Below are positions 12,001-24,982 of a DNA stretch of 64,000 nt, piece after piece (the stretch's first letter is position 1; each line of letters begins with the position of its first letter). Below the pieces are notes generated by a model that was given only the letters and a program-made list of their open reading frames with translations, had not been told where the DNA came from and searched no databases. A program made the position numbers and the translations under genes. Origin of the DNA: Moniliella sp. 'wahieum' (lineage: Eukaryota); the NCBI GenBank assembly GCA_003971905.1, contig RSEE01000029.1:186001-250000 (forward strand). The letters are read 5' to 3'.

Positions 12001-14361
12001 AATATACGATTCGCTCCGTTCCTCAGCTTGCTGATGGTGAAGCAAATCTTTTGCATCAGAGTCAACGATTCCACAACTTGGTCGTGCGCCTGCTCCGACT
12101 TTGTTCAGACGCTCCTCCAGTTCCCCCACATAGTCAGACTCGTCCGCCTCGCGGTTGGAGAGATGGCTCATGCCACCCTGAAGCTCAGCCAACTCTTCGC
12201 TGGTCCGTTCAGCAGCTCGTTCTTGGTCAAGAAGCCGGCCCTCCAGTTCGCTCACTTTGGCTTCAAGCATGACCACGAGGTCTTCCGAATCACCCAAGGC
12301 AGCCTTGAGCAGGTTGATCTGACCAGTGAGGACATCCATCGACTTTTATACTCGAGGATAACAGGCTCAGCGGACTTAGGGAACATGTCCTTGCTCTCAT
12401 CCCGCTCAGACGGAGAAGAGGCGCACGCCGTTTACAAGTGGCGGACGGGGATTGGGCATGTTGGCTCCAACGTGCGTTTTCCAACTTGAGCTGCGTCATT
12501 CCTCGGCCATTTGAGCAAGACGGTCTTGTTGCTTGCGAATGGTTTCCTGCGCCTCCCAACCATCCGATCCAACAACAGCACTGCCTCTTGATCAATGGCC
12601 GATGCAGCTGGGGACAGCGATCGAGCCTTGCGTAAGTTTTGGCGGAGCTTGGTCACCAGCGCCTGCAGATGGCTTACGTCGTCCCACCCAGGCTCATGCT
12701 CGTTTAGCTCTGCTCTTTGTTTTTGATTGCTCGAGCTCGGGAGGCATACTGCAATGTGTTGATCGTTTCGCTCACGTTAAACTCGGTCGGACTGACGCAA
12801 GCAATCATCAGCGTATAGGCGTTTCCCCCCAGCGAGTCCTGAAGTAGGCGAGTCAATTTGGAATCGATAGGGGACATGCACGGCCTTTTTGCCCTTGGAA
12901 CGTCTCCCAAGGCCGAGATCACGTTCCCCAACGCATGGAGGCCCGAGTTGATGCTGATGCCCTCCTTGATGCGCTCCCCCTTGGATAAGGTACGTTTGAG
13001 CTGGGTGGGAGATTAGGTCAGATAATTGGTTTCCACCAGCACAAGAAGGAGGGACTAACCCGTTCAGATCCCGCCAGATCGACAAAGTGGAACTTGCTGA
13101 TGGTGGTACCATTTCATCGTCAGAGTAGATCTCTGCACTTTTTGAGATGGATTGACCCCGATGGCTTCCCGACGTCTGGGATGGGGCCGGCGAGAAGCCA
13201 TGGACAGCAGGTTTCCTGCCCCCATTTTGGGCGAGGTCAATGGAGGCGAACACCGCCCCAGCTGTAGGCCGAACCATGGATTGCGGCCGCGGGATGGCTG
13301 ACATGGGCGTCCGCCTTCCGGGTGAGGTACGACTTGATGAAACAGGGGTGATACGACCCCCAAGGGAAGGAGCGTCGGCTGATTCAATCCAGGGAGATCC
13401 AGGGGACTGGGATGAGTGCCCAAGGTGGAAGGTGGGCGGTTGGTACAGGCTCAGAGGGAGGTGTTGGTGCTTCAGCGTCAAGCTGAAGATGGCATGGGAG
13501 CGGGAGGATTGGGTGTTCATATCCGTCTCGTTGGTGCGACGGGCGGCGTTACCCTGGGCTAGCAGGCCATAACGTCGGCCACGCTTTGAACTGTGATCTC
13601 GTTCATGCCCGACCAAACGATTTGGCCTTTGTCCTGACGATCTGGACGAGGGGGCGAATCAGCGGGGCGGTCTGGGTCGGCAAGTAAATCGATCAGTCTT
13701 CGTTGTACAGTTCGATAAAGCTGACAGACAGGACGAAGTTCGAACTGGGGTTTGTGTCACGGGTAATGCGATGGAAGATGTCAGCAACCGCACGTGGGAT
13801 TATGCCAGTGGCGGGTGTTGTAGGCGCTCGAATCATCAGGGGAAAAGGTGGAGGTGGGACCCATGGCGGTGCCCATGGTGTACGACTTTCCGCTGCTCGT
13901 CTGGCCATAGGCAAGGACGGTGGCATTGTACCCCTCAAAGAATTTCGGGATCAGTGGCTGAACCGAGTCGGCATACTGCAGCCTGGTCGTCCGTGGAGGC
14001 AAAGACACGTCGTAATCATAGCTGTGTTGGCTGCAGCGGGGGTCGCCGGGCCGGACGCGCCAGGGGGTACAGATGGATCGACTCGAACGCGGGCAGCGCC
14101 GTCGGAGAGAATGGATCCGCTGCCAGCGCGGGGAATGGCGGCACGATCGTTGGGGGTCAGGGGCCGGATGCGGACAACAACGTGGACAGCATTCGCATGG
14201 GCGGTGGCGGTGGCGGTGGCGGTGGCGCTGGGGACGGGGTCTTCACTGGCAGAGGCGAAGGAGGCGGTGCTGCCGGCGCTGAGGGCAGGGGTGTGGGGCT
14301 GGTGCTCGGAGAGAGGAGCAGGGGGGATGGGGGAGACGGATGGGGGCGGGATGCCCGACAT
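9086..14361 (-). CDS. Kinesin-4-like (KIF4/KIF21-type) motor with long coiled-coil tail
   Basis: [10 protein letters not shown]-loop [22 protein letters not shown]; switch [13 protein letters not shown]; switch II DLAGSER|LKRT across intron 13001-13059; [25 protein letters not shown]; then about 3 kb of Glu/Ala/Leu-rich coiled coil. The exact stop (about 9051-9086) is uncertain because of indels. Confidence 0.88.
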
Positions 14362-15559
14362 GCCAGGCAGGGGCGCGGAGCCAAGCGGCGGGCAGAGGGA
14401 GGTGGGGGTGGGGGTGTGGGGTGGTGGGGGTGGGCGTGAGGGTGGGTGCTGGGGGGGCTGAGGCGCTGAGCGGACTGCTGAATGCTGCGACGCGAGAAGG
14501 CGAGCGTGGCCTGGGGGTTGGCTGGGCTGGCTGGGCTGGGGGTGCCAGCTAGCAAAGCCTAACCGCAGAACACTGTGCGCCCAGCCGCTGCCCCCGCCCG
14601 CACGGATGCACGCAGCCCACACTGGCCCTGTGCGGGGCTGCGATGTGGCGCACAGTTTCGCGCCGGGGCTGCACACTGCCCCCAAGGCAGGGGGGCCCGC
14701 GGGGCGGCTGGAGATCCGACGCAGGAGCGCTCCCAGACGCGACGCCTGCGATTGTCCTCCCAGGCCTCACTAGTAACTAGTAACTAGTAACGGCGCAGGT
14801 GCCCAGTGGCGCTTACCGAGTAGTCACTAGTCATTAATCATTCGCGACGCGTGATATGTGACACACGCGATGCTGGTGACATGCATGACATGGCCGTGCA
14901 GACGTGTGTGCTGCGTGCTGCCTGGTGCTGCGGTGGGTGCTACGCGCCAGGGCACGAGGCCACTGTGCTGTCCTGTCTGCGTACGCTTGGGGCTGCATAT
15001 CCAGTGCTACGTAGTTCCGTCGCTGGTTCCTAGCTCGTGCTCTGTCCGTCTGTCCCATGTCCCGCTCCATCGACGGGGGCCAAGTGAAACGTTCAGCTGA
15101 ACATTCAATGTTCATCGTTCAACATTCAATCACCAGGTCTCGCATCCTATCTCCATTCTCTCCATTCTTGCATCGGGCAATCTCACAGAGCCACGCACTT
15201 CAATCCGTTTGCGATCGAAGCAGACTTTGCTCCCTACCTGCCCCGCAAAACACTACACCCAGTCCTTTGTTAAACGTGAAACGTGAAACGTAACGTATAA
15301 AGGGTACACGCTAATTGATTCCGGCGTGATCTGGCAGCTCTCTTTGTGGCAGCTCTCAGTGGGACGAACGCCGGCTTTTCCAAAGGCTTACAAGTCGCGT
15401 GTGGTCGTGATGGGCGTATTCGAGTGAACAATCGCTATTCGTCTGGCACCCATATCCGCTGGCGCGCTTAGCACTTACACCTCCATCATCTTGTGCTCCC
15501 CCTCCCTCACCCGGCGCGGTCCGCCCCAAAAGCCCGTGTTTGCGCCCCAATACTATGGC

Positions 15560-16092
15560 TCCATGTATACTCCCACCCGGCGTGCCGCGGCAGACTCCGC
15601 ATCAGGACATTCTCCACCCGTGCCCCGAGCGTTGGCAGCCCAAACTTGATCCCCCGGTCGTAAATCAAGTTGAACTCGGCATACCGTCCCAACCGAATCT
15701 CTTGCCAGGCCCAAGTCCCGCAGCGTGTACGGCGTCTTTTTGTGCTTCTCAACAATCGCGGCTTATATGTTGGCACAAATGCGTTCCCCAAGCTGCGCAC
15801 CGTCTCGCAAACAATCTCTCAACATGGTTCTTCTCGGGCGAACGAGCCAAGAATGCCGCCTTGTTCCTGTCAAAGAGGCCCATGAAAGATGCCCCCCCGG
15901 TGGAGAGAGAGAGATCATCAAAGAAGACACCGTCCATACGGTTCTCGTTTTGCCGTGGGAAATCCAAGAGTACTACTTGTCGCACCAGCGCTTCCAAATC
16001 GGGTCGAAAGCCGGTCACACTTGTGGGCAACTGCCTTACGGGTGGCATGGAAGTGCTTGACACCGTCCTCGCTGAGGTGCATGTGTGTCAAC
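15560..16092 (-). pseudogene. HEM13: Coproporphyrinogen III oxidase relic, C-terminal half
   Basis: LTHMHLSEDGVKHFH (cf. LTPxYLxxEDxxHFH), WCDK, GVFFDDL, WQEIRLGRYAEFNLIYDRGIKFGL, GARVENVLMRSLPRHAGWEY. Frameshifts plus substitutions in normally conserved positions. Confidence 0.9.
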
Positions 16093-16600
16093 AAGCGCAT
16101 GGAAGTGTACATCCCCTACCTGCAATGCCATAATGACCACAAGGGCTGGGCAAAGCACCAAGAAGGAATGCTTTTTGATTGACGCTTGCAAACGTCTGGA
16201 AGGCCGAGAGAAGACATTTCGTCGGTCATTCAAGGTGGTGATATACGTTTGACAAGGGCGGCGTCACCATCTTCATTGTCCATGGCCATCTGCCCCCAGT
16301 TGCTATTCGTCAGATGAGTGTGGACCACAGCAACTTGATTGACAAATGGTATTAGGGTATACATCCTTGAAGAGCCCGAAGCCGAGGTGATGGGGCTGCA
16401 CTTCTTTGCCGCTCAGCTGGGCTTAGTGATCCACCCCAAGAACCCATTTTGCCCCACCACGCACCTCAACTACCGCTACTTTGAGCTGACTCACCCTCCC
16501 ACGCTTCAGGACGGTACCTTCAATCCACGCCACCTCCAAGACAAGAAGGACACGCGGATGGGACGAGCAAGGCCGTGGAGTGGCCGTTTGGCAGGGATGT
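16093..16600 (+). pseudogene. HEM13: Coproporphyrinogen III oxidase relic, N-terminal half, inverted relative to the C-terminal half
   Basis: [85 protein letters not shown], degenerate VEWPFGRD (cf. VAWWFGGG). Confidence 0.88.
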
Positions 16601-17611
16601 GGATTTTCTGTGCGCATCAGTTGCGATGCGCTGGCATCTGTATTCACCGAAAGATCCAGGTTGCATCGATCGGCGAGGTGGGACTTGGATGCTTTCCCCT
16701 GGTCAACCAAGGCCGTCGTAGTTCCAACAAAGGGACGTTATTGCGTGTGTTGAGCAGCACAAAAAACAAGTTGGGTGGGCTGGTACGGACGAATGGGCGT
16801 GGCAGCCGGAGTGACAGTCGGATCAGCCTGTGGGTCCTTTAAGCAGAGCCCAGGGGGTGGGCACTGTAGTACAGGTTGTGTATAGACTGTGTGGTTTGTT
16901 CACTGCCAAGGGAGAAAGGTATCGAGCGGAACGTTAGGAAAACAGACCTGGAAGGGCAGGGCGTCGGCGGCCTGGGATCGTCCGACTGACGTTCGTCGCA
17001 GTAAGGCCGGTCGCATGCTGTGTGGTTCGCGTCGCCTGTGGCAAAAGTCCATTTTGCTCTCGTGCCTCGCGTTATTAGCTTTGCTCCTTCCTCGGTAGCT
17101 GCTGCGGCTATTGTGCGGGTCTAAGCAGTGCCGGGGATGCACTGATGTCTCGATCATCAGTCGATCATCTCTCAATTAGCATGATTCATGAGCGCATGGA
17201 CGCATCAGCTACTTACAACGAACCACGCTACCATCTCTCCCCCTTGGAAATCGCGGTGATAATGACCAAAGAGGCGCACGTTACTACTTCTCCAGAATAC
17301 TAATACGGTACTGCCCGTCTGCACGATGGATGCAATACTAGTTATGCAGCCTGAGCACGCCAAGCTGAGCCCCCAACATTCCCCTCCATCTCGGTCGGCT
17401 TCCCTACTCACTCGACTAGGTTACTACGCATCCCAGCGGAGGCGAGACGAACTATTACAGACGAGAAACGCGGCAAATCAGCTAGGGCAAGGCAACGGAC
17501 AAAAAAGGCCATAGATAGGAATCGGACCGTGTCGAAGGAGAGGGTGGAGAGTGCAAAAGAGAGGTGGTATCAACTTCCTTGATTGCCCACTGCAGACGGC
17601 ACAAGCTAGTG

Positions 17612-20600
17612 CTAGGGCTGGTACCCATTAGCATAGCCTGGCCTTTGAGGCATGGGCTGCGCCAGCTGCGAAGCACCGTGCGGCGCGGGCGGCGCGGGTG
17701 GCTGGGACGAAGGGTACGCACCCATTCGGCCGGGAGGACCCTCGCCTGGCTGTTGGCGACGGATCGAGCCCATCATCGGCAAAGGAGAGTGAGTTCGTCG
17801 CATCGAGCCAAGCGGCGCAGGCCCGCTCGCCGAAAACCCGTGGGGGCAAAGGGAGCGCCAGGAGCGATTTGGCCCACGTTCATGTGCATGTTCATGTTCA
17901 CTTCATGTTCATGTTCACGTTCATGTTCATGTTCATGGGCATGTTCATCGGCATCTTCATGTTCATCGGCGCCCCAGGCATGGGAGGCGGAGGCGGCGGC
18001 GCGCCTGGGATGATGGGAGGCGGAGGTGGAGCACCGGGCATGACTGGCACAGGCGGACGTCCGGTGACATGTTGAGCGGCCATGCCCGGACTAAAGTGCG
18101 AAACGGCCGAGGGACCCGGTACGGGTCCCACGCGAACCGGACCCATGGCCGGGCTGACCTTGACACTGTGCAGACTGGGCGAGCGAAGCGGAGGGACCAC
18201 CATCGGAGCCACTTGGGGGCTAGAAGGGGCAGCCAGCGAGCGCATCGACGGAGCCGGACTGGGCGGGGGACGGGGTGGTACAATGACAGGACCCGGCTTG
18301 GCTACCGGACCCGAATGTTGGGCCAACTGCAACGGTACCCCAGCTCCACTTGCTGCAGGGCCAGGACGCAAATGTAGATCGAGTTGTCCCCTTGGAGCAC
18401 AATGTTGTGGCGCGAGGTGAAGGCGCTTTCCCACATGGGACTGTGCGCAGCACTGGTCGGCTTGCTCGTGGGAACATGGGCCTGGCTAAACGCAAACGGC
18501 ATCATGCTAATCTGGTTGAGATGCTGCGGGGGAGGCATTGGAGCACTGGGGTAGCGCTGCGGTACAGCCGGCATACCAGGCCCACCAGCGGGGAAGCCAG
18601 GGCGGCCGGGAGCTGCCCGGTAGGGCCCCAAGGCGGGGGATGAACTGGGATTTAACAGCACCGGGGCCGACGAAGAGGGAGGCAAAGGGGGGCGTCCTGG
18701 GCCAGGAGGACGATTGGTACTTCCCATGGGAGTGCCCTGCCCACCAGGGGCAACCCCAGCTCGAGACGATTCTTTGCTCTCCGTTGCTGCAGGAGCTGTT
18801 GTTGCAGCTCTTTTTTCGACGGCACATGAGGCGAAGGATCGGCAAAGAGGCATCCCAACCGTGAGCCAGTCAGGATCTGGTGCAACGCGCCGGTCGAGAC
18901 GTGGCGGATCTCGACAAAGCTCGAATCAAATGCCAAGAGGTATGGGTACGACAAGGCAAACGAGGTCGGGTGCCCCTCCCACGAGATGAGCCAATCCGGG
19001 CGGGAGCGACGACCAAACCGATTGACATAGAAAGCAAACTCGTCGTAACAGAAAACTCGCCGTGAATGAGGTAGATCGCCAGAGGGCGGGCGGTAACTTC
19101 TTTGTTGCTGGTCAAAAATCGAGCTTGGGGTCGGTCACGTCCAATATCCCCTGGGTATCGAGCGTGTCAATGTCCACAATCTCGAACCCCTTGGCACAGC
19201 TGAGACAGAGTCTGTTTTGAGGAAGACAGCGCCTGAGGACTCGGTCGAAACGTAAAAGTCCTTGTAGATGCGCAGCGCGTCTTGACCCTTGGAGTGGTTC
19301 GAGCTCCACTGCAGCCCGGGACGTTTGCCCTGGGCTCGCTGCTTGGCGTCAAGAGGCTCGAAAAGACGGATGGTCGATGAGACAGTGCTGGACTTGACTG
19401 CACACACCAACGTCTTATTGTTGACGCTGCCGACGCAAAGAAATGAACCGTTCCTTGGATGCGCCGACCCGCACGAAGAGACGCATCACAGTTGGTCGGA
19501 TTGAGAGCGTCCAGAGTGAATGTCCAGAGCGTCTTGTCGGAAAGAACGAGGAGGACTTGATATTCCTCCAATACTTCGATTTGCGCCACGTCCGGCAGAG
19601 GAAGTACCTTGGTAGGAGGGCGAGCACCCTTGCGAAGTTCAGAGAGAAAGACACCCTGTTCGTTCCATAGATAACTCTTCGTCCAAAGTCGAAGGGACAC
19701 AACAGTTGGGGCGAATGTCTTGCTCCTCTGCTGGCAAGGCATGACCCTTCTGGTGACGGTCCGGCCGCTCTGGCTCACGCGGGGGAGTAAAGTCAGCGAG
19801 CGGGCCAATAGGCATAGTCTCAAAATGTTGCTCCGATTGCGAAGCTGAGCCTGGGCCTCGTCGATGTGCTCGAACCACTTTTGACGTCCAACAAAGGTCG
19901 ATGCCCAAAGGGTCATGGAATAGCCATTGCGTCCGAGGAAGGTGAGCCGCAGCGCATACCCGTCTTAACATCTTGTTTGGGACCAGTTCCAGGGCAAGAA
20001 CCGAGGTGAGACGGTTGCCTGTGCTCATGCGGGTGGTGAGTGATTTGAGCTTGCCAGAAGGCTTGCTGCCAGTGGGAGCAGGTATGTCCTCGTAAACTGT
20101 GCACATCAGTAGTTCCAGAGGAATTGGCTTGCGGTTCACACGGAGGATCTCGACCTTGTGCACAATCTTTGGCTTGACCAGTACAAATGCATGGTCAAAC
20201 AGGTATGCTTGAAGTTCCGCGGTTTCACCCTGCCCACTTCCACCTCGACGCTTTAACGGGCCCTTAAAAACCATCTCGCGCCCCTCGTGTCTGAGGTGGA
20301 GGTCGACTTCCTCGCCGGGCTTGAAGATAAGCTGGTCTGCCAAGGTCGTTACTTGGAAACGGTTTCGCTTTTTCCCTGTCTCCTCATTCACCTGGGAGAG
20401 GAATTGCTTGACCATCTTGATCACCTCGGGAAGGGTCTCCTTATCGGATTCACCATCCTTGGTGTATTTGATCACCTGCTCCAACAGAAGTGGGTAACGG
20501 GCCAAACGCGTGGTAGGCTTGGTCAAGTATCCATTGAGTTCCAGCTTGCGCGACTCTGGTAACCGTTCAACTTCCTGCACGTTGAGACACGGTCAGTACA

Positions 20601-23563
20601 TCGCTCCCAAAGCCAAACAGAGAGCCGGATACGCACATCTACAAACGCAACAAACTTGGGATTTTCAGCCTTCTCCTTTTCAAACTCGTACTTGCCGTAC
20701 AGCTGGTGCGCGCCATAGCGGACAAAGGGTGCAAAGAGGGGAACACGACTCAAGAAGACATCGCCGATCTGCTTGACCACATCCTTGCTTTTGCCGGCGA
20801 ATCAGAGCATCCGAAAGGGGCTTGTTGACAGAAAGAATTTCCTCTGCGTTCCAAAACACTTGACGTACAAATTGAGCGCGCCTGTCTTCGGGTTCAATTA
20901 CGCCCGGGGTGTTGCGCAGTGGGTTCATCCAACGATCTCGTAGTATTCCAAGTCATGGACAAAGTCGGCCTCCGTGTTGACTACTTCGTTGATCAGTTCT
21001 TGCCGCTTGCGTTCCCTGCTGTCGACGCTTTCCAGCACTTCTTTACTCACCTTATCCGCCCACAAGGCGCCGGGGTGGAGCGACGGGCATCGTCATCTTC
21101 GTCGCCGTCCTGGTTGTCTTGTACGCCCGGCAATGCGCCCCTGATTGGCTCAGGGCCAGGCGCCCGCCGCGCACACCAAGGCACCATCTGCTCCCGCTTC
21201 GGCTTGAGCAGCCGCCGCCTCGTCCTTCTCGTGTTGGGTAAGATGATGATGATCCCGTTGGCGCAAACGCTGGCGCTGCTCAAGCCGAACATGCTGAGCC
21301 ATGCGTCGAGGGCAAGAGAGAGAGTAACAGAGATGTTCATCCGTGCAGGTAGAAGAGTAACATTTGGTAAGAGGAGTAAAGACACCCGATATCGCCACTG
21401 AATCATCTCCGTCCAGTAACGAGTCGGTGTCCTCATCAATGCCCTCGGTACCGGGTTCCGCATCATCGAACCCATTAGCCAAGTCGGCATCCTCCACATT
21501 GGCAAGAACGTTCACATCCGTCATGGGACCCAACCCTAATCCACCAAGACGGTGGAGCCGTCGACGGGCAGCATGGTCCCTTCCCCCGCCACCTGGCATT
21601 CGGCCACGGAATTGGTAGAGCTCAGTGGCCGAGTCGCGCAGTCGACGGTCGTACGTGACGTGATGGAAAAACTTATTTTGTTCCAGACTGCGCCCGACGA
21701 GCAGGGCCAGGTTCCGATGGGAGCTCGCCTTGGTATCGGGCCTGTCTCGTCCGAGCGTGGGCTCCCGAGGCCCAACAGTTGGACCAACACATCCACCGCC
21801 TCAGATCCATCAAAGGCATCCTTGTAGGACAAGCCATCTTTCGTACGTTCGCGAACTGGGATGCCAGCTTGCATTGCGCGCGCCATACGGCTGAGCAACG
21901 CAGGATTGAGCGGCAATTGGGGAAGATAGTTGGGCGTATCCGGTTCGTGCAGCCGAAGCAGCGTGTGTTCTGGGCTGGCCTGGGGACTGGGGCGGTGTAG
22001 TTCACGCTGCTTGTGCTCTCTCGAGCAACGAAAGAGTCGGAGCTGTGAGATTGGTTGGCTTGAATCTGTTGGTGATGGAAAGCCAGAGTGTCAAGTGATT
22101 CCGAGCGCTGACGAAGGTCCCCGCGTGATGACCTTGACGTCCCCACCGATAAAGGTTGCGAATCGTGGCGGTCCACAGGCCAAGGGGCCTGGTGCGGCAA
22201 AGCGACCTCCTGGGGGTGGGGGGAGATGTGAGGTGAAGGTCCATGTGACGCGTACGGGGAGGCTTGGGGAAAAGCGGAAGAGTGGTCTTGTCTTGCTTCT
22301 GCGGCCGAGGCGAAGCGGGATGACGAGGCGTTTGCGCCATTCGGGCGGCTGCGCATTAGCCCAGTCATGCGTCTGGCTGCTGCCGCCGTATGGACTGGCC
22401 ACATCCAACGCGTGGACCCCGCCGGGACAGATATATGCGGGAGTCACAGGAGAAGACGAGGTGGAGGAGGTCGCACGGTAGAGAGAAGGCGAGAAACTTG
22501 ACAGACTGTCTGAGCGTTGGGGCCCAGCACTAGCTCGTGGGGGGTGGGGTGCGATGTGACAAAAGCCATGCGTTGAGCTTGTATCTGGGCTCGCGCATCC
22601 TCCTGCGACGCAAAGCCTGCGGAGGGCGGCGAAGGGATTGTCGAGGCAGGAGCGGAAGGGCGCCGATCTGGGGCCCGAGTGGACTCGGCCGAGTGTGTGT
22701 GCAGCGTAGGGTCGGCAGCGGGTAGAAGCGAACTAGGTAATTGAGGTGGCGCTGGCGAGGGCGGCTACCGAAAAGCCATCATACGCATCTTCCAAATCAG
22801 CCAGATCCTCCGCCTCGGAAGAAGGCGGCTGTGGCCCAGGGGAAATGCCTCAGAGCGTCGGTCAGGGCTGGTGGCGACTGTCAGGGCATCAGCCAGGGTG
22901 GGGGGTCGGGGCGGATGGAAGGGGGCGCCAGAGAAGCTGGATACGGATGAGGGGCTGGTAGGCATGCCGGGGTGAGGGAACGCACCAGGGCGCGAGTAGT
23001 AGCCAGGCGCCTGGGGGGCAGCCGAGCGACTGCTGTAGGAGGTGGCCATCGTGACGGGGCTCATGCCACCGCACTGGATGAGGAGCTGGAGTTGGGATAG
23101 CCAGTGCTGGAGTAGGAGCCACGCGGGGAAGAGGCAGGCATGGAGCCGGGCGCGCCAGGGGGAAAGGGAGGGGGAGGGCCAAAGTCGTACGGCGCCTGAA
23201 AGGGCGGGGCATGGGGGGGGGGGGCGGCCAGGGTAGAATCCGGGCGGGGGTCTTGGGGGTGGGTGGTGCGCGAGGCTGGCGAGGGCGTGGGCCGAGGGTT
23301 GGGGCGAGGGCGCATAGATGCCGGGCGCCTGAGGGGGCAGGGGGGGGCCCAGCGGCGGGCGGGCGCCAGGGCCGGGAGCGGGCGCGGGCGCAGGAGCAGG
23401 GCGGCGGACAGAGTGGGGGCATGGGCGGGTGGCCGGGGGCAGCAAAGGGCGGGGGGAAGCGGGCGGGGCGGCGGGCGGCTTGGGGGCGGCGGGCCGGCCA
23501 AAGATGTTTCGTACGCGGCGGTGGCTTGTCGGGTGCGCCCGCGGTGCGCGAGGGGGCAGGCAT
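17612..23563 (-). CDS. ROM2: Rho1 guanine nucleotide exchange factor (DEP, DH/RhoGEF, PH and CNH domains)
   Basis: DEP motif KDGLSYKDAFDGSEAVD; GVFTPLTKCYSSTC...LCYSLSCPRR; DH motif VERLPESRKLELNGYLTKPTTRLARYPLLLE; PH motif YLFDHAFVLVKPK; CNH motifs QIEVLEEYQVLLVLS and YPYLLAFDSSFVEIRHV. Intron 20575-20636. The Pro-rich N-terminus and start codon are uncertain. Confidence 0.9.
17878..17965. repeat. (ATGAAC)n-type hexamer microsatellite in the ROM2 3' end, encoding an Met-Asn repeat
   Basis: Plus strand reads gttcat gtgcat gttcat gttcac ttcat gttcat gttcac gttcat gttcat gttcat...; minus translation MNMKMPMNMPMNMNMNVNMNMK. Confidence 0.85.
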
Positions 23564-24982
23564 GGGGGCGGGCGGGGCGAGGGGGTGCGGAACGAGTGGC
23601 GGGGGCGGAGGGGGCGGTGGCGGGTGGCGGCGGTGGGGCGGTGGCGGCGGGGGGGCGGCGGCAGCAGCCTGGAGGTGGCGCAGAGGCAGGCGGCGATGGC
23701 CAGCAGGCTGCTCAGGCTGGGCCGTCGGCAGCCGTGTGTGGCCTCGGGGCGACGCACTGGGAGAGCTGCCTGCCCCGTCCTGCGTGGGTCCCTCGGCGGC
23801 CAGCCCGCCGCCACACTGCCCCCCTGCTGCGCCCCGTGCAGGCGCCGTTGCTGGGCCTTGCGCGCCTCGCGCTTGGCGTTCCTATCGCCCTGCAACATTT
23901 CATTTCCCGCTCTTCTTCCCCTCCCCCTCCTTCCCCGCCTCACGCAGCCGCCCTCCTCTCAGATCTCATGGGCCACGCCTCCCCCCTCCAGCCACATCCC
24001 TGCCCGCCCTCCGTGCTGCGGGCGCCATCCGCTCTCGGCCACGTCGCCCCTCGCCCTTGTTTGCAGACCGCCTACAGTCCCCCACCAAAGCAGCTTCATC
24101 CGCTTTTGGTAGCTGCTATTCGCTTCGCTCAGGCGCTGGGGATGCACTTGTCGCCAAGCCCTAGCCAGTCCTGGTCTAGCAGCCATGAGTCTACACCGCA
24201 CCGTGACGCGCAGGTCCAAGTCGGCCTACAGGGCAGCTACCGATGATCGACCCGAGGCAAATTTGCAAATATACATGACAATAACCAGTGAGGCGAGAAC
24301 AAAACGAGTAGAGCATGTAGGAAAAGCTGATATGCGACTTCGTCCGAGAGCTGTGCCGACGAGCCACTGCCCAGCTTCACCTTGAGTTGGTCTGCGCTCG
24401 CGCCGTCAAGTAAGCCTTGCAAGCAAGAACACGGCAGCGAGATGCCCAGATGGAGTCCTTCCTGGGCCCCCTCGCCCTGAGAGCGGTCTGTCAAAGGGAA
24501 AGAGCCAATCGGCTCCTGGCCGCGTTTTTATACACCGCGTCCGCCAACCTCCACGGCGGAATTACAAGGAGCACTTCCAACTTCCGGGACGTGAAAGTTG
24601 AAATAACGTAACCAAACCAATGCACCGGCCCCCCCATGCGTTCCGCCGTCTCCTGCAACCCTACCTCGCTCCGTCAGCCGCAAGGATGCCATACCCAACC
24701 ACTAGTCACTCCACTGTGTTATACGCAGAATGCAGAACTCGGCCAAGACGACCTGACCGATCCGAGGCAGTGGGCAAGCAGATTATTGCAGTGGCTATAA
24801 CACAAGGGTGGGTTGAACAGTAGTAGACAAGAGGTTGAAACTCGAGGGGTAGTACAAAGAAAGGCGGGTCGTATGCTGTGTGGGGGGTTTTTCTTTTTCT
24901 TTTTCGAGGACAGGGAGGGTCCCATGTTGAAGAAGAGGGGCGTCATCTGTTGAATGACCGGGAGGGGATGTGCAGACTAGGC

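Follow-up and report, generated by a model that had tools for sequence, protein, structure and literature searches.

Oxygen-dependent coproporphyrinogen III oxidases (HemF, Hem13 and CPOX) form a family with solved structures such as 1tkl/1txn and 2aex. Unitary pseudogenes of biosynthetic genes are known to leave their hosts auxotrophic, as exemplified by the GULO relic in primates and by the loss of fatty-acid synthase in Malassezia, and gene inversions mediated by repeats, such as those of human F8, are recurrent events that take place between inverted repeats. The locus described here lies in a 64-kb window (the whole stretch of DNA that was analyzed, on which all positions are given) and is a full-length relic of an oxygen-dependent coproporphyrinogen III oxidase gene (HEM13, HemF/CPOX family), encoded on the minus strand at approximately 15448-16737. 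In the reading that we consider distinctly probable, this is a real and non-functional relic in which a 521-bp segment would have been inverted through end joining, with decay since then and possibly also before, and a working copy of the gene would reside elsewhere in the genome.

The assignment to HEM13 rests on profile and protein searches that yield matches on both strands. A minus-strand frame at 15507-15818 matches positions 195-281 of the Pfam Coprogen_oxidas profile (PF01218; length 295, cut-off 31.8 bits) with 77.8 bits (E 7.5e-22), and a plus-strand frame at 16339-16600 matches positions 75-113 with 43.6 bits (E 1.9e-11), while the plus-strand frame at 16242-16355 shows a weak, sub-threshold match to positions 49-74. 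Compared with the PDB, the minus-strand C-terminal frame retrieves coproporphyrinogen oxidase chains at E-values of 8e-18 to 1e-16. A search with this same frame also identified an intact relative of 407 aa (P0001), and tblastn with P0001 as query aligned its residues 33-184 on the plus strand (16087-16554, E 5e-26) and its residues 201-390 on the minus strand (16091-15498, E 2e-22). The initial annotation, which had placed the N-terminal half of the enzyme on the plus strand and the C-terminal half on the minus strand from 16092 downwards, is borne out by these Pfam and tblastn matches, and the motifs it had quoted (FDKGGV, HPKNP, NYRYFE, WPFGRD, RLGRYAEFNLIYDRGIKFGL and WEY) are all present as written. 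Within the rest of the window, tblastn with P0001 revealed no second HEM13 copy (no other match at E < 0.9), and a permissive tblastn of the flanks (14700-15450 and 16700-18400) returned no additional HEM13 fragment better than E 0.4.

The extent first proposed for the locus, 15560-16600, stops short of its full span and misses codons 1-34, which are on the minus strand. Frame-aware alignments to P0001 and to a second intact relative (P0013), together with direct reading of the frame, locate the 5' end of the pseudogene (codons ~1-34) at 16613-16737 on the minus strand. Codons 1-34 themselves run from 16719 to 16613 and directly border the inverted block, with P0001 residues 2-34 matched at 16716-16613; upstream of codon 1, at 16720-16737 on the same strand, a short stretch can still be aligned to the N-terminal extension of P0013. 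The middle block, supported by tblastn, junction reconstruction and Pfam, occupies 16092-16612 on the plus strand and carries codons ~35-200 (KRMEVYI ... WPFGRDVD) in 521 bp. The 3' part, with codons ~201 to the end (LTHMHL ... HFH ... FFDDL ... RLGRYAEFNLIYDRGIKFGL ... WEY), extends over 15448-16091 on the minus strand according to Pfam, PDB, tblastn and frame-aware alignments, and its original stop codon is no longer recognizable. The strand order along the gene is hence minus for codons 1-34, plus for codons 35-200 and minus from codon 201 to the end, a layout for which an internal inversion is the only explanation, as opposed to two diverging fragments.

As assembled, the conserved blocks of PF01218 are not all on one strand, and the order found in the enzyme is regained only after flipping 16092-16612. 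The scripted reverse complement of this segment generates a single collinear tblastn HSP that covers P0001 residues 2-399 of 407 (E 6.4e-50), in agreement with the earlier proposal that a flip would restore collinearity. Direct reading of the left junction (16089-16095) shows the minus-strand Leu201 codon (16091-16089), a single base (16092) and the plus-strand Lys35 codon (16093-16095), and the right junction (16603-16618) comprises the plus-strand Asp200 codon (16603-16605), 8 extra nucleotides and the minus-strand Met-Arg codons (16617-16612 region). Once flipped, the N-side joint is in frame and reads L-M-R-K-R-M-E-V, as in the relatives, with an exact edge that is ambiguous by 1 nt. The C-side joint, in contrast, presents 8 extra bases, TTTCTGTG (16605-16612), that separate the Asp and Leu codons and match nothing in the relatives. 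The adjacency of these two residues (WWFGGGxD directly followed by LTP), which the initial annotation had cited for the intact enzyme, is invariant in 12 of 12 aligned intact relatives. The description of the event as a clean inversion of about 500 bp is therefore apt for the N-side joint, which is seamless at the codon level, but not for the C-side joint with its extra bases, and the block measures 521 bp.

Neither strand of 15001-17500 contains another copy of TTTCTGTG that could have provided a template for the filler. Inverted repeats of at least 12 nt are absent from the breakpoints, where the longest junction repeat is a direct pair of 11 nt, and a repeat-mediated inversion was rejected on these grounds. 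The combination of filler at one joint and no flanking inverted repeats points to end joining of two breaks rather than to homologous recombination. The internal block (codons ~35-200) was probably excised and re-inserted in reverse, and the likely route would involve two double-strand breaks followed by end joining that left one joint flush and the other with its 8 filler bases.

Two short sequence matches were also observed around the inverted block. An exact 11-nt repeat, GCATGGAAGTG, is present at 16045-16055 and 16097-16107, 52 nt apart and straddling the left junction; its copies are direct now and before the flip would have been an inverted pair some 520 nt apart. By a rough estimate, chance alone would yield 0.3-0.7 such 11-mers in 1.7 kb, and since the breakpoints fall outside both copies, the repeat is probably fortuitous. 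The second match, of 17 nt in 18, pairs 15737-15754 (minus sense, I-V-E-K-H-K-K codons) with 16748-16765 (plus strand), just upstream of the relic. Its score was reached by 1 of 300 shuffles and the match does not extend further; it may be a scrap from an additional rearrangement, or chance.

The lesions of the coding sequence were counted in frame-aware alignments, computed with our own script, of the flipped sequence against the intact references P0001 and P0013. The alignment to P0001 comprises 393 codons, 250 of them identical, with 15 frameshifts and 2 in-frame stops; P0013, the best reference, yields 66% identity, 14 frameshifts and 4 in-frame stops. Six or seven of the frameshifts and one stop (16353-16355) map to the inverted block, and eight frameshifts and two or three stops (15973-15975, 15553-15555 and 15475-15477) to the 3' part of about 640 bp, so that frameshift density hardly differs between the flipped and unflipped parts (~1.2-1.3 per 100 nt). 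The position of the start ATG in the relatives is occupied by ACG ACG in the relic, and no alternative ATG exists in frame between the upstream stop (16738-16740) and a Met located two codons before the junction.

Furthermore, 27 of the 118 columns that are invariant in 50 intact relatives are altered in the relic, compared to 0-3 of 123-126 invariant columns in leave-one-out controls with six intact proteins. By a rough calculation, the 27 changed codons would correspond to about 0.1 substitutions per site. This damage is reflected in the maximum-likelihood tree, where the terminal branch of the relic (0.60) is about three times as long as those of three intact clade-mates (0.16-0.24), and in a quick mixture-model tree, where the corresponding values are 1.55 and 0.25-0.37 and the relic row was flagged as long. 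The original call of a pseudogene is upheld by the frameshifts, stops, lost start and changed invariant columns. Judged from its sequence, the relic is non-functional and cannot make an enzyme. It has drifted without selection after the inversion, and possibly before it as well, and the inversion need not have been the lesion that killed this copy of HEM13.

A repeat mutated by repeat-induced point mutation was considered and rejected. Judged against the usual thresholds for such indices, the TpA/ApT ratio (0.48), the (CpA+TpG)/(ApC+GpT) ratio (1.36) and the GC content (0.555) of the relic are like those of the rest of the window (0.56, 1.32 and 0.59, respectively), and they hence provide no sign of this process.

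The nearest named HEM13 proteins belong to Tilletiaria, Ustilago, Sporisorium, Tilletia, Malassezia and other Ustilaginomycotina; those of Malassezia are intact. In the maximum-likelihood tree, the relic groups with the intact proteins P0001, P0013 and P0015 at 100/99 support, although its position inside this group is poorly fixed, and the next named relative of the clade is the HEM13 of Tilletiaria anomala (P0017). The frames of the three clade-mates are open and encode 407-433 aa, to which the relic is 64-66% identical in frame, and the block from NPFCPTTH through NYRYFE to THPPTL is identical in the relic and in P0001.

A census of motifs in 131 intact proteins detected RRGRY in 120 and RLGRY in 5, with the motif absent in the remaining 6, and RGIKFG in 10. 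The carriers of RLGRY are exactly P0001 and P0013-P0016, which is the clade of the relic itself. Among the three substitutions that had been attributed to decay, the change of WWFGGG to WPFGRD does fall on invariant residues, but RLGRY and RGIKFG, to go by their distribution in these alignments, are lineage traits and not decay substitutions.

The clade of P0001 and P0013-P0016 is itself distinctive. It sits on a long stem branch, its proteins have Leu within RRGRY, a motif kept almost universally elsewhere, and they lack the long N-terminal extension of other Ustilaginomycotina HEM13 proteins (about 460-580 aa); the relic shares their short N-terminus. This clade could represent either a second paralogue or no more than a rapidly evolving lineage.

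The relic occupies an intergenic slot of its own, of normal size, between intact housekeeping genes in a gene-dense region. On one side, the 5' end of a kinesin-like gene with open frames (12780-14766, minus strand; Pfam Kinesin and the list of open reading frames) lies about 680 bp from the 3' end of the relic, and on the other is a RhoGEF/PH/CNH/DEP (Rom2-like) gene, also with open frames (18305-23958, minus strand; Pfam). Long open frames in the window encode a proteasome alpha subunit, a dynein heavy chain tail, the kinesin, the Rom2-like RhoGEF, SHMT and PRP4, as well as an RSN1/PHM7 channel, a clathrin heavy chain (921 aa), mitochondrial S19 and an SMC protein. The SHMT gene includes an exon of 395 aa that is 97% identical to the protein of a relative; SHMT shows 94-97% identity to two proteins and 81-84% to those of Violaceomyces, Thecaphora, Sporisorium and Tilletiopsis. 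Together with the HEM13 matches, these similarities place the host in Ustilaginomycotina. The intact state of the neighboring genes indicates that the decay of HEM13 is local and does not reflect assembly noise.

No transposon, flanking repeat or poly-A remnant was seen at the relic, nor was there a T-run on the plus strand below 15448, which would mark the poly-A of a retro-copy. Six loci of relatives (L001-L006) encode HEM13 without interruption, in 1218-1230 nt, so that the lack of introns is uninformative on a processed-pseudogene origin. The possibility of another gene opposite the relic was examined and rejected: at E ≤0.01, Pfam assigns no family to a 240-aa frame on the plus strand (15411-16130) or to any of four flanking frames. 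Comparison of 13 of 80 metagenome HEM13 loci (L001-L008, L010-L012, L015 and L016) with the 151 window frames of at least 150 aa matched only the HEM13 frame, apart from a weak SMC-hinge match, in L015 and L016, to a window gene that lies 42 kb from the relic; with at best 55-56% identity to P0001, these loci are too distant to inform on gene order.

Several compositional features were observed in the window. A hexanucleotide array, (GTTCAT) x15, occupies 17878-17966, in the spacer that separates the relic from the RhoGEF gene, and one of its frames is a His-Val run. At 14200-14463, inside the proline-rich 5' region of the kinesin-like gene (minus strand), hexamer arrays of GGCGGT and GGTGGG occur together with a 22-nt repeat. 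The stretch 22001-24000, at the 5' part of the Rom2-like gene, shows the window extremes of G+C (0.69) and GC skew (+0.25), with several long frames open on both strands.

Three alternatives to a real, inverted pseudogene were weighed against these data. Were the pseudogene real but its inversion an assembly error, the true gene order would be collinear, and the inverted order is indeed seen in, and underlain by, one assembly only. Yet the breakpoints lack inverted repeats able to flip an assembly-graph bubble, the 8 junction bases are foreign to both sides, a pattern that typifies biological end joining and not a mis-join, and the rest of the 64 kb is well assembled, with long open frames, which renders this explanation quite unlikely. 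It is very improbable that this HEM13 works and owes its broken appearance to sequencing errors. Although 12 of the 15 frameshifts can be modeled as one kind of shift, which homopolymer errors could mimic, such errors do not account for the 27 substituted invariant residues of 118, the lost start ATG or the 2-4 stops; moreover, the inversion in itself breaks the frame and the neighboring genes show no such damage. A programmed invertible segment, acting as an on/off switch and caught in its off state, would fit the inversion of a discrete internal block with one codon-exact junction, but it is scarcely credible given that flanking inverted repeats are absent, that a scan of 59 long frames (54 + 5) detected no recombinase family and that many other disabling lesions are found on both sides of the junctions.

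A further alternative accepts the inverted pseudogene but holds that it is the only HEM13 of the genome, decayed in place, in which case the host would be a natural haem auxotroph living on scavenged haem or porphyrin, or would possess a non-homologous replacement enzyme. The evidence on this point is divided. The relic is full-length and occupies an ordinary gene slot flanked by intact core genes, where nothing hints at a duplication vehicle, and it nests among the intact genes of its closest relatives (100/99), as an orthologue would; these features count against a redundant copy, and loss in place would look alike. The window holds no second HEM13, an absence that rests on 64 kb of genome. 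A study on Ustilago maydis reports that strains in which hem12 is shut off need added hemin for growth and cause no disease (PMC11530707). The rescue of haem-deficient strains in culture by exogenous hemin indicates that haem uptake exists in the subphylum. Nevertheless, the same study presents haem synthesis as essential, with haem-deficient strains failing in planta, and describes natural haem auxotrophs as rare among free-living organisms (PMC11530707), and HEM13 is intact in 50 of the 50 Ustilaginomycotina-like relatives of the invariant-column set. On balance, we regard the loss of a sole copy as unlikely. As haem synthesis is essential to these fungi, a working HEM13 would most likely be present elsewhere in the genome, and the locus described here, whether original or copy, would then be the duplicate that was discarded.

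Taken together, these data identify the HEM13 locus as a new instance of a known feature, the pseudogene with an internal inversion, here probably end-joined, and provide a clear case of a housekeeping-gene relic whose internal inversion was not mediated by repeats. Literature searches on HEM13 pseudogenes and on fungal haem auxotrophy brought up no description of such a pseudogene in Ustilaginomycotina; the papers listed for the former concern Candida and appear unrelated. The locus also serves as a warning to annotation pipelines, by which such a relic may be missed or called as two opposed fragments. If the relic were the sole copy, an essential step of haem synthesis would have been lost in place in Ustilaginomycotina, with the inversion as a datable scar. 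Such a loss would bear on the rarity of natural haem auxotrophy and on haem synthesis as a fungicide target, as proposed for U. maydis (PMC11530707).

Like the HemF/Hem13/CPOX enzymes, the locus has both halves above the PF01218 cut-off and, after the flip, the same order of conserved blocks; unlike them, it has neither an open frame nor a start codon, its middle third is inverted and 27 of 118 invariant residues are replaced. With the intact HEM13 proteins P0001, P0013 and P0015 it shares RLGRY and the short N-terminus, along with the NPFCPTTH-THPPTL block in which it is identical to P0001, whereas those genes are open, with 0-3 invariant differences, and the relic is broken, on a branch about three times longer. 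Only if this were the sole copy of the gene would the locus, a complete relic that keeps a slot of its own amid intact neighbors, also resemble the unitary pseudogenes. Finally, as in the inversions of human F8, the gene is interrupted through the inversion of an internal segment, but the HEM13 block differs from them in that it is not flanked by inverted repeats and in that one of its joints carries filler bases.
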